DNA from: a virus
Taxonomy: Duplodnaviria > Heunggongvirae > Uroviricota > Caudoviricetes
Direction: 5' to 3' (one strand)
Virus record (IMG/VR): IMGVR_UViG_2698536646_000001
DNA length: 7,672 nt
Position 1 is the stretch's first letter; the number at the start of each line of letters is the position of its first letter. Both the position numbers and the translations under genes were made by a program. The notes under the pieces are model-generated. The model did no database searches. It was not told the DNA's origin and saw nothing but the letters and a program-made list of their open reading frames with translations. Below, piece after piece: positions 908 to 1,500 of the stretch.

Positions 908-1417
908 TTAGCTAAAAAAAGGCAACACGAAGCTAAAACTACCAACATAAAGTGCTGACCAGCTAGCAGCTGAAATCAGACTCACTGTATACACTTTCAC
1001 TGGATGAAGTTGCAACATTCCTGCCACCAAAGGAGCAATATAACGCAGCACGGCGATAAAGCGCGAAGTGAAAAGTATTGACACAGAGTTATTTTGCAAC
1101 TGAAGGCGAACCCGTTCTATTGTATTGGAACGGCTTGATATTATACATGCAAGTTGAGGGATATGCCCAATTATTATACCAAGATGGTAATTAACGATAG
1201 TACCGCACCATGCGCCACTCATGACCGTGATTCCAGCTTCCCATGGTGAAAGAGTCGTCTTGCTGACTGTAATTACAGTGGCCATCATAATTGATGCTGG
1301 TGGCAATATCGCCGAAATGAGTAAAGTGGATTTTGTGAACGCTATTATAAAAAGAAGCCCCCATAGGCGATATGGATGAAGTACAAAATAGTTCATCAAA
1401 GCATTTATCCACTCCAT
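908..1417 (-). CDS. DedA-family (SNARE-associated / TVP38-like) inner-membrane protein, short divergent variant; a prophage moron
   Basis: 169-aa ORF on the minus strand with a strong SD (AAGGAA, 8 nt before the ATG at 1417; the ORF-track start at 1420 is TTG). It is hydrophobic throughout. It carries the DedA signature ...SRFIAVLRYIAPLVAGM... (compare E. coli DedA ARFVPIVRTFAPFVAGM and YqjA GRFIAFVRTLLPTIAG) and an N-terminal FIIAFTKSTLLISAILPPAS segment aligning to the FLENGLLPAAFLPGDS motif. The region is visibly more AT-rich than the flanking phage genes. Confidence 0.7.
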   Translation of the reverse strand: MEWINALMNYFVLHPYRLWGLLFIIAFTKSTLLISAILPPASIMMATVITVSKTTLSPWEAGITVMSGAWCGTIVNYHLGIIIGHIPQLACIISSRSNTIERVRLQLQNNSVSILFTSRFIAVLRYIAPLVAGMLQLHPVKVYTVSLISAASWSALYVGSFSFVLPFFS

Positions 1418-1470
1418 CAATGTCTTTCCTTCTGTGAATTTTTCTTTGCTATTTAACCGTGATACGACTT

Positions 1471-1500
1471 AATTTAGGCTTAAACACCTTACATTTACAA
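1471..1500 (-). promoter_or_regulatory. Candidate sigma70 promoter for the DedA-like moron
   Basis: On the minus strand: TTGTAA (plus 1495-1500), an 18-nt spacer, then TAAATT (plus 1471-1476), about 50 nt upstream of the start codon. Each hexamer matches consensus at only 4 of 6 positions, so this is weak. Confidence 0.2.

Follow-up and report, generated by a model that had tools for sequence, protein, structure and literature searches.

The stretch of DNA analysed here (the window) comprises 7,672 nucleotides of a Caudoviricetes record, IMG/VR entry IMGVR_UViG_2698536646_000001, and our subject is a short gene of the DedA family on its minus strand, between lysis and packaging genes. On the plus strand a lysozyme gene and the C-terminus of the Rz spanin lie to the 5' side, ending at position 819, and to the 3' side are the genes for TerS (from 1615), TerL, the portal, MuF, a DUF2213 protein and a cement protein. 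An identical locus in E. coli FDAARGOS_943 belongs, by RefSeq annotation, to a lambdoid prophage integrated beside ybhA-modC, in which holin, RrrD lysozyme and lysis protein genes are followed by an opposite-strand 'DedA family protein' and then the packaging genes. Placed on the opposite strand at the lysis/packaging junction, the DedA gene therefore occupies the position of bor in phage lambda.

The program listing of open reading frames (ORFs) gives a minus-strand ORF at 908-1420 that encodes 170 residues from a TTG, and this TTG at 1420 is also the RefSeq start (170 residues, WP_011069285.1). The ATG at 1417-1415 yields 169 residues and is the start common to all homologues (MEW...). The Shine-Dalgarno sequence AAGGA is at 1431-1427, with the ATG 9 nt and the TTG 6 nt further on. 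The gene lies in an AT-rich island of 795 bp (820-1614), which fills the space from Rz, ending at 819, to terS, starting at 1615. The G+C fraction (GC) is 0.421 across the island and 0.417 in the ORF, compared with 0.487 upstream and 0.522 downstream; at third codon positions the value is 0.386 as against 0.50-0.61 in the phage genes. An original prediction, made from the sequence alone, had described an intact 169-codon minus-strand ORF with a Shine-Dalgarno sequence, in an AT-rich island, forming an antisense prophage moron at a position like that of lambda bor, and this description is accurate. The features of the region are listed below.

908-1417, minus strand: coding sequence of a 169-residue minimal-core DedA/VTT protein (from TTG 1420 in RefSeq; AlphaFold2 (AF2) model with a predicted local distance difference test score (pLDDT) of 88.9)
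1331-1333, minus strand: codon of Lys29, at the position of YqjA E39 in the first re-entrant hairpin (from alignments; Lys confined to the subfamily)
1199-1201, minus strand: codon of Thr73 (Ser in most of the subfamily), the position of the Asp of a 'G-D' motif in the YabI-like clade (from column comparison)
1043-1063, minus strand: R119-F-I-A-V-L-R125, the arginine pair of the second re-entrant hairpin, YqjA R130/R136 (from alignments)
1427-1431, minus strand: Shine-Dalgarno sequence AAGGA (read directly)
1451-1456, minus strand: candidate -10 hexamer TTAAAT (TTAAAT/TCTAAT conserved in nearly all Enterobacteriaceae members)
1470-1486, minus strand: degenerate direct repeat TGTTTA-agcct-AAATTA, homologous to a PhoP-box-like element of relatives
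898-1492, minus strand: mobile cassette, consisting of the ORF preceded by about 75 bp of promoter/leader and followed by about 10 bp (from blastn boundaries and alignment)
820-1614, no strand: AT-rich island, GC 0.42, missing from about 100 E. coli prophages with the same terS

A short, charge-altered DedA subfamily

The protein matches the Pfam VTT_dom profile PF09335 with 52.4 bits (gathering score 33.9, E=9.2e-14), residues 41-161 aligning with profile positions 3-121 of 123 (119/123 positions), and the assignment to the DedA family made by eye is thereby upheld. The equivalog cutoffs of NCBIfam are not reached (31 against 236 bits for PRK10847; 19.9 against 250 and 16.3 against 300 for UptA equivalogs). 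The protein and its relatives were compared with the E. coli K-12 paralogues YqjA, YghB, DedA, YabI and YohD. Residue equivalences are taken from a MAFFT alignment, with which an independent alignment by profile hidden Markov model (HMM) agrees. Identity to the E. coli YqjA/YghB set is only 18-23%. Both alignments pair FTKSTLLISAILPPAS of the window protein with FLENGLLPAAFLPGDS of YqjA, which places Lys29 at E39 and Ala41 at D51 as the by-eye alignment had done. Arg119 and Arg125 correspond to YqjA R130 and R136 and are invariant in the subfamily described below. The chain ends some 45-50 residues short of the C-termini of the E. coli paralogues and lacks their C-terminal transmembrane (TM) helix; the shortened C-terminus and the retention of both arginines had likewise been read correctly from the sequence.

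E39 and D51 of YqjA are reported to be essential and proton-titratable (PMC7818093; 2026 preprint). Among the best 150 profile matches, Lys in the E39 column is confined to the short subfamily, and the 128 representatives outside it carry Glu (126), Asp (one) or Gln (one). The D51 column of the 128 nearest non-subfamily representatives holds Ser, Ala, Thr, Val, Ile or Gly, with Asp in just three, and E. coli YabI has Thr there. Ala41 alone is therefore unremarkable, and the notion that it is unusual was rejected. A second acidic residue is lost elsewhere, in the helix after the first hairpin, where the Asp of the 'G-D' motif is present in 119 of the 128 and is replaced by Ser or Thr in all subfamily members (Thr73 here). 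The claim that a conserved acidic pair has been lost is thus correct for the Glu but not for D51, which is not a family-wide residue, and the G-D Asp had gone unseen. Four hairpin glycines are also replaced in the subfamily (by Ser35, Pro40, Ser118 and Ala122, from the column comparison) and no acidic residue is invariant in it. On these alignments the hallmarks of the subfamily are Glu to Lys at position 29 and Asp to Ser/Thr at position 73.

Outside the subfamily the nearest relatives are N-terminal domains of YabI-like type, and many of these are fused to a PAP2 phosphatase and LssY_C. Those closest to the subfamily (P0041, P0042, P0046 and many of P0041-P0171) are 530-730 residues long and combine an N-terminal DedA domain with PAP2 and/or LssY_C; such a fusion would fit an involvement of that DedA clade in the recycling of undecaprenyl-(pyro)phosphate.

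A search of 5.8 billion proteins returned 21 relatives from Shigella, Citrobacter, Arsenophonus and metagenomes, with lengths of 148-185 residues (subfamily members are given as 166-180). A pattern-seeded scan of one genome per species found 70 loci, in Shigella/E. coli, three Citrobacter species, two Kosakonia, about 25 Enterobacter species, Lelliottia, Huaxiibacter, Entomohabitans, many Arsenophonus, Morganella morganii, M. psychrotolerans and Proteus myxofaciens. The motifs K-S-T and L-P-P-A-S are kept in 73 of 74 distinct sequences, with Lys29 and Ala41 invariant, and the sole exception resembles a truncated copy. Because these motifs had themselves seeded the scan, an exhaustive HMMER search with the family profile was run over 1.84 billion representatives. 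Twelve proteins were found at E<=1e-30, below which the scores drop abruptly to about 92 bits and continue into ordinary DedA proteins. Judged by these searches the window protein is a member of a small, conserved and mostly chromosomal subfamily of about 170 residues, whose genes in Enterobacter, Lelliottia, Morganella and Arsenophonus are chromosomal, and the best-supported account is that the subfamily is ancestrally chromosomal in the Enterobacterales. The original prediction of a prophage-borne, charge-altered paralogue holds as far as prophage and charge are concerned, but the protein is neither unique nor degenerate. A truncated pseudogene was rejected since all family members are similarly short and the AF2 model is a complete core.

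Pairwise ratios of nonsynonymous to synonymous substitution (dN/dS) are 0.09-0.25 among the window, Citrobacter, Kosakonia and related copies, with 0.24 between the window and a Citrobacter youngae prophage copy. By this measure, given as 0.15-0.24 for the coding sequence, and by the invariance of Lys29 and Ala41 the gene is under selection and is not a product of chance or decay. In reduced Arsenophonus symbiont genomes of 0.85-0.94 Mb (L064, L078, L083-L086) a K-type short DedA gene is kept with no adjacent mgtE, and its retention suggests a housekeeping role in that lineage.

An AF2 model from 15 sequences was too poor to use (pLDDT 58.7); that from an alignment of 150 sequences reached a pLDDT of 88.9 and a predicted template modelling score of 0.84. 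It places helices at residues 2-13, 15-35 and 41-52 (turn L38-P39-P40), 58-85, 87-109, 111-118 and 122-134 (turn R119), and 139-168. The predicted fold is an amphipathic helix, a re-entrant hairpin and a TM helix, occurring twice in inverted orientation with the flanking helices absent, and the helix pattern is that of the published DedA core topology (PMC7818093). The window protein, at 169 residues, lacks the core-flanking TM helices of canonical members (about 200-250 residues in total) and has no second membrane-embedded acidic residue at either the D51 or the G-D position (Ala41, Thr73). The PDB holds no solved homologue detectable by sequence or by Foldseek, and a fold search of BFVD gave just giant-virus 'SNARE-associated' proteins at E of about 1 and no bacteriophage DedA.

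In YqjA, E39 and D51 on the first hairpin and R130 and R136 on the second converge in mid-membrane, and the alanine mutants are reported or cited as folded but non-functional (PMC7818093; 2026 preprint). By homology Lys29, Arg119 and Arg125 would form an all-cationic centre in the membrane, because Glu is replaced by Lys29 and Asp by Ser/Thr73, the D51 position has no Asp and both arginines are kept.

Capture by prophages and decay of the host prophage

The C. youngae copy, 78% identical, lies in a different lambdoid prophage, with a GpA-type terminase, portal_2 and a GH19 endolysin; it too is on the opposite strand, with lysis genes on one side and the terminase on the other. Chromosomal copies occur in C. 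meridianamericanus, C. amalonaticus and Kosakonia. By blastn, homology of the window DNA to the C. youngae prophage and to the Citrobacter/Kosakonia chromosomal loci is restricted to 898-1492, which holds the ORF, some 75 bp before it and some 10 bp after it. These boundaries indicate that two unrelated lambdoid prophages have each acquired, at the same junction, a cassette of about 600 bp that comprises promoter and ORF.

The island is present in 6 of 5426 complete E. coli genomes. It is lacking from about 112 E. coli genomes that share the terS of the window, and homology in these begins at most a few bases from the terS start codon. Strain PEC422 has a different lysis cassette, with terS 57 nt after the last lysis ORF, and a near-identical copy at locus L090 has the same Rz and an unrelated terminase. 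In composition and location the window gene is a moron: it sits at a module junction on the opposite strand, has a GC of 0.42 as against 0.52 and is optional. A survey of related prophages had been proposed together with the concern that the gene might be an ordinary chromosomal paralogue unrelated to the prophage; the survey yielded the C. youngae prophage cassette and the six positive E. coli genomes, and the window copy itself is inside a prophage, of which about 100 relatives lack the gene.

The prophage of the window lineage is probably defective. Compared with FDAARGOS_943, the window portal gene (3733-5199) has in-frame amber codons at 3907-3909 and 4108-4110 (TGG to TAG, CAG to TAG), which are shared by IMG/VR loci L092, L093 and L099 and absent from L091 and L097. 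In other strains terL is interrupted by IS2, MuF has an internal stop or IS911 adjoins the DedA gene. The DedA ORF is intact in 18 of 18 near-identical loci. In E. coli FDAARGOS_943 and VL7S7 (L001, L002) the host prophage is full of the insertion sequences IS1, IS2, IS600 and IS911. IS911 is 52 nt from the DedA start in VL7S7 and the packaging module has gone entirely, with the DedA ORF intact; its product, WP_073820983.1, differs by one amino acid from the window copy.

In the C. youngae prophage (L003, 8311-9776) three more small ORFs on mixed strands lie between the DedA cassette and the terminase, one encoding a DUF6694 protein and two without a Pfam match, which makes the lysis/packaging junction of that prophage a moron hot-spot of several genes. 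IMG/VR locus L105 was rejected as phage cargo; its gene is just beyond the end of a Mu-like prophage, probably in chromosomal flank. Identity with a known phage gene was rejected also, there being no DNA or protein match to the subfamily among the 50,697 phage genomes of INPHARED. The few DedA matches in that collection are 24-30% identical and resemble host fragments, and a PHROG match is weak and to a family without assigned function. A defence system was dismissed, there being no PADLOC match.

Two further observations concern the surroundings of the gene. A GC-rich imperfect inverted repeat at 1505-1530 (CTCCGTGG ... CCACAGGAG on the minus strand) lies between the DedA promoter and terS, close to the conserved cassette but not within it. 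Neither strand has a T-run after the repeat, which may be a scar of recombination or an element that serves the phage in regulation or packaging. A run of 154 N at 483-636 masks the lysozyme/Rz junction and is the cause of a spurious 236-residue lysozyme-Rz fusion ORF (109-819) in the ORF listing. In the otherwise identical locus L092 about 408 nt take the place of the 154 N, so the window coordinates are compressed there.

Magnesium-channel neighbours and the promoter

In 27 Enterobacter, Lelliottia and Huaxiibacter loci the DedA gene is divergent from a gene for a 333-residue CBS-MgtE protein, and the intergenic region contains an M-box Mg2+ riboswitch before mgtE (RF00380, 113 bits; L028, 7547-7716, minus strand). 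The M-box RNA block is at least 95% conserved across 25 species of the Enterobacter group. In Arsenophonus the order on one strand is DedA, M-box (RF00380, 107.6 bits; L017, 10810-10979, plus strand) and mgtE. The mgtE-type gene preceded by the M-box encodes 333 residues with CBS and MgtE domains and no MgtE_N match. In all eight Morganella loci the DedA gene lies between rarD and corA-uvrD, convergent with corA at a distance of 10 nt. Three arrangements involving two unrelated families of Mg2+ channel are hard to ascribe to chance. Rfam gives no match in the window. A link between DedA proteins and divalent cations has been observed elsewhere: Mg2+ uptake in Xanthomonas requires the DedA protein XdfA, whose loss adds to the effect of losing corA1 (PMC10470534), and the phenotypes of a Klebsiella yqjA yghB mutant are suppressed by Mg2+ or Ca2+ (PMC10846249).

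Nearly all Enterobacteriaceae members have a direct repeat, [K/C]GTT[G/T]A-N5-[G/T/C]ATT[T/G/C]A, at -63 to -70 from the start codon, followed after 12 nt by TTAAAT or TCTAAT. The spacers are variable, and the element is kept despite unrelated upstream neighbours. Among PhoP-activated promoters a direct-orientation PhoP box 12 nt before the -10 element has been termed 'architecture I', and a second upstream box makes 'architecture II' (PMC3335776). The shared element agrees with architecture I. In 21 Enterobacter species an additional, perfect TGTTTA-N5-GGTTTA box is found about 37 nt further upstream, its half-sites kept while the spacers vary; it is the single such site in a 16.5-kb locus, where 0.01 would be expected. 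The C. youngae prophage copy reads TGTTTA-ggctc-GATTGA, 12 nt and TTAAAT. The window copy has a 1-nt insertion and reads TGTTTA-agcct-AAATTA (1486-1470), 13 nt and TTAAAT (1456-1451). The insertion, with G to A changes specific to the Shigella/E. coli copy, also gave rise to TTTAAG-cctaa-ATTAAG at 1468-1484, one mismatch from the PmrA/BasR box YTTAAK-N5-YTTAAK and without a second example in the window, where 0.31 such sites are expected. It may reflect a switch from PhoP to BasR control or it may be chance, and we treat it as unproven.

Expression data exist for a chromosomal counterpart. When E. hormaechei 4236 was made colistin-resistant by deletion of mgrB, which encodes an inhibitor of PhoQ, 'DedA proteins' were among the top overexpressed envelope genes (PMC10434160). 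In the supplement to that paper N5F16_08425 (magnesium transporter, CBS, MgtE) is 19.6-fold, N5F16_08430 (DedA family protein) 23.1-fold and N5F16_08435 (short-chain dehydrogenase/reductase (SDR) oxidoreductase) 3.1-fold up in the deletion strain. The order mgtE, short DedA, SDR is that of the subfamily locus in E. hormaechei and in 18 other Enterobacter loci. The PhoPQ system, which responds to low-magnesium stress, thus seems to induce the chromosomal variant. The small protein Ecr reportedly induces a gene named dedA(Ecl), which is reported to be needed for PhoPQ-dependent colistin heteroresistance in E. cloacae (Huang, Feng & Zong 2019 J Antimicrob Chemother 74:2551, as cited in PMC7771540); dedA(Ecl) may be the K-type gene beside mgtE or a canonical paralogue.

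Proposed role and comparison with known systems

Building on the gene itself, its fold class and substitutions, the selection acting on it, its mobility, its genomic associations and the conservation of its promoter, we put at slightly better than even, about 0.55, the probability that the window carries a host-regulated lysogenic-conversion gene for envelope/Mg2+ stress, whose product has a DedA lipid-handling core that is not proton-coupled. A minimal, PhoPQ-controlled and Mg2+-linked DedA variant would have evolved in Enterobacterales chromosomes; its promoter and ORF would then have been picked up as a cassette at the moron hot-spot after the lysis genes by at least two lambdoid prophage lineages, one of which carried it into Shigella/E. 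coli. In the lysogen the cassette's own promoter, under the control of the host, would most likely drive transcription separately from that of the phage late operon, to which the gene is antisense. The protein would handle anionic lipid head groups, of undecaprenyl phosphate (UndP) or phospholipid, in the inner membrane without proton coupling, and the outcome, envelope remodelling and Mg2+ homeostasis under PhoPQ-type stress, would amount to lysogenic conversion. With three basic and no acidic residues at the hairpin tips, cation binding or carboxylate protonation is unlikely, and the ligand is more plausibly the anionic head group of UndP or a phospholipid, which other DedA proteins are reported to bind.

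Several points weigh against such a role. PhoP control of the window copy is the weakest link of the account and is what we infer from the relatives: the window box has three mismatches and the 13-nt spacing and is not significant on its own within the window, and a consensus scan gave neither a sigma-70 site upstream of the ORF nor a terminator downstream of it. N5F16_08430 is assigned to the subfamily by synteny rather than by sequence, and the phoPQ microarray targets of Shigella flexneri 301 include no recognisable DedA or prophage gene, the locus tag being unmapped. The Citrobacter/Kosakonia/Shigella clade, which is the mobile one, has no Mg2+ transporter as neighbour, having lost the channel neighbourhood. 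Both the substrate and the absence of proton coupling are deduced from sequence, and the putative nearness of Lys29 to Arg119 and Arg125 derives from published YqjA models and not from the model of the window protein. The literature searched contained no published experiments on this protein or its subfamily.

The original prediction had offered superinfection exclusion, lysis timing or dominant-negative action on host DedA proteins as possible roles. None of these gained support, the evidence pointing instead to PhoPQ/Mg2+ envelope physiology. A modulator of host DedA proteins would form heterodimers with YqjA, YghB, YabI or similar proteins through the re-entrant hairpins, Lys29 pairing with Glu39 so that the partner is inhibited or retuned. 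The re-entrant hairpins and the cluster of E39, D51, R130 and R136 have been placed at the centre of the YqjA dimer, and crosslinks are reported near the C-terminal helix (2026 preprint); a charge reversal exactly at the E39 position would suit a complementary hetero-interface, and the C-terminal helix is missing from the window protein. We nevertheless regard this as unlikely: the whole core, both arginines and every hairpin motif are conserved as strongly as in an autonomous protein, the gene is kept in Arsenophonus symbiont genomes of 0.85-0.93 Mb, and the Enterobacter counterpart is co-induced with positively acting genes of the PhoP regulon. A function serving the phage, be it superinfection exclusion, anti-phage defence or control of lysis timing beside the lysis cassette, would fit a membrane protein whose gene adjoins those for holin, endolysin and spanin and is expected to be expressed in the lysogen. 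Many morons at the lysis/packaging junction act on the cell surface, as do lambda bor and lom, and in the mosaic prophage of L090 the cassette stays with the lysis side while the terminase differs. Such a function is nonetheless hardly credible given the absence of PADLOC matches, of subfamily homologues among the deposited phage genomes and of any bacteriophage DedA in BFVD. Most family members are chromosomal with no phage context, a host-type promoter element is inherited with the cassette, and the gene is antisense to the late operon.

Direct transport of Mg2+ or another cation, as accessory uptake alongside MgtE/CorA, might be proposed from the three arrangements beside Mg2+ channel genes, from the XdfA requirement and its additivity with corA1 (PMC10470534) and from the rescue of Klebsiella yqjA yghB phenotypes by Mg2+/Ca2+ (PMC10846249). 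The loss of conserved acidic residues, the gain of a lysine and the want of any invariant core acid are the opposite of what a cation site needs, and we think this proposal highly improbable. There is also a small chance that in Shigella/E. coli the decaying prophage carries the gene as a neutral passenger, intact through recent acquisition alone. The prophage is certainly decaying, through the portal ambers, IS2 in terL, the MuF stop and, in other strains, IS911 next to the DedA gene; the Shigella/E. coli copies are 99-100% identical and have thus left little time for selection, and the promoter box is more degenerate than those of the relatives. To be set against this are the intact ORF at all 18 near-identical loci where neighbouring phage genes are disrupted, the dN/dS of 0.24 on the branch to the C. 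youngae prophage copy and the retention of 75 bp with the promoter along with the ORF.

Returning to the lysogenic-conversion gene with a lipid-handling core, we can extend the idea speculatively. The subfamily could conceivably represent a low-magnesium isoform of the DedA lipid-phosphate carrier, in which the lysine and the lost carboxylates replace the charge supplied to the central site by a proton or divalent cation, though we consider this distinctly doubtful. If it were true, recycling of UndP or phospholipid could go on under Mg2+ scarcity, at a time when lipid A modification driven by PhoPQ increases demand, and phages would have mobilised a PhoPQ module into Shigella/E. coli for use in Mg2+-poor, peptide-rich host compartments. 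There would be a natural mutant pair (E/D as against K/S) with which to dissect DedA coupling and a mechanistic explanation of the long-noted rescue of DedA mutants by Mg2+.

DedA proteins are ubiquitous and tied to colistin resistance and to transport of undecaprenyl phosphate and phospholipid. The subfamily offers a natural minimal core, maintained by selection, in which the supposedly essential Glu is Lys and there is no membrane carboxylate, so that the charge network and the connection with Mg2+ become directly testable. Phage capture would be a route by which envelope-stress modules enter pathogens such as Shigella and E. coli as lysogenic-conversion genes. The annotation 'DedA family protein', the family and the fold are already known. 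The literature searched holds no description of the subfamily, of its Glu to Lys/Asp to Ser signature or of its core-only architecture, nor of its Mg2+ channel neighbourhood, PhoP-box promoter or capture by prophages.

Of known systems, the YabI-type DedA proteins and DedA-PAP2-LssY_C fusions (PF09335) are the nearest outside relatives, scoring about 72-92 bits against the family profile. Common to them and the window protein are the core, the arginine pair, the prolines and glycines of the hairpins and the absence of Asp where YqjA has D51. Unlike it they keep the Glu, in an E-S-L motif, and the Asp of G-D, and have extra C-terminal helices or PAP2 and LssY_C domains (650-700 residues); the window protein has K-S-T and G-T instead and ends after the core. 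With E. coli YqjA and YghB, which have roles in envelope stress and whose mutant phenotypes are suppressed by divalent cations in Klebsiella (PMC10846249), it shares the DedA fold and the arginine pair. It differs in carrying Lys and Ala in place of the reportedly essential E39 and D51 of YqjA (PMC7818093), in its identity of 18-23% and in the missing C-terminal TM helix.

The transporters of undecaprenyl phosphate of UptA/PopT type show a weak profile likeness (NF052604, E=6e-4), but the window protein scores 19.9 bits where the equivalog cutoff is 250 and lacks their acidic residues. Their arginine pair is reportedly implicated in lipid-phosphate binding, in the work of Roney & Rudner and of Sit et al. 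(both 2023). XdfA of Xanthomonas campestris is a DedA protein tied to Mg2+, a parallel to the mgtE/corA adjacency, yet it is of canonical length and its authors box conserved negative residues as putative metal-binding sites (PMC10470534); it is set beside the window protein by description. The same applies to the minimal archaeal DedA-like proteins (PF06695, e.g. Mt2055, 168 residues), which are core-only at about 170 residues with the flanking helices absent (PMC7818093) but belong to a different Pfam family and a different domain of life, so that the likeness is one of description only. As to genetic setting, lambda bor encodes an outer-membrane lipoprotein unrelated in sequence, and no terminator was detected at the window gene; yet the resemblance to bor-type morons is clear in a single opposite-strand gene between spanin and packaging genes, deviant in composition, optional and with a candidate promoter of its own.

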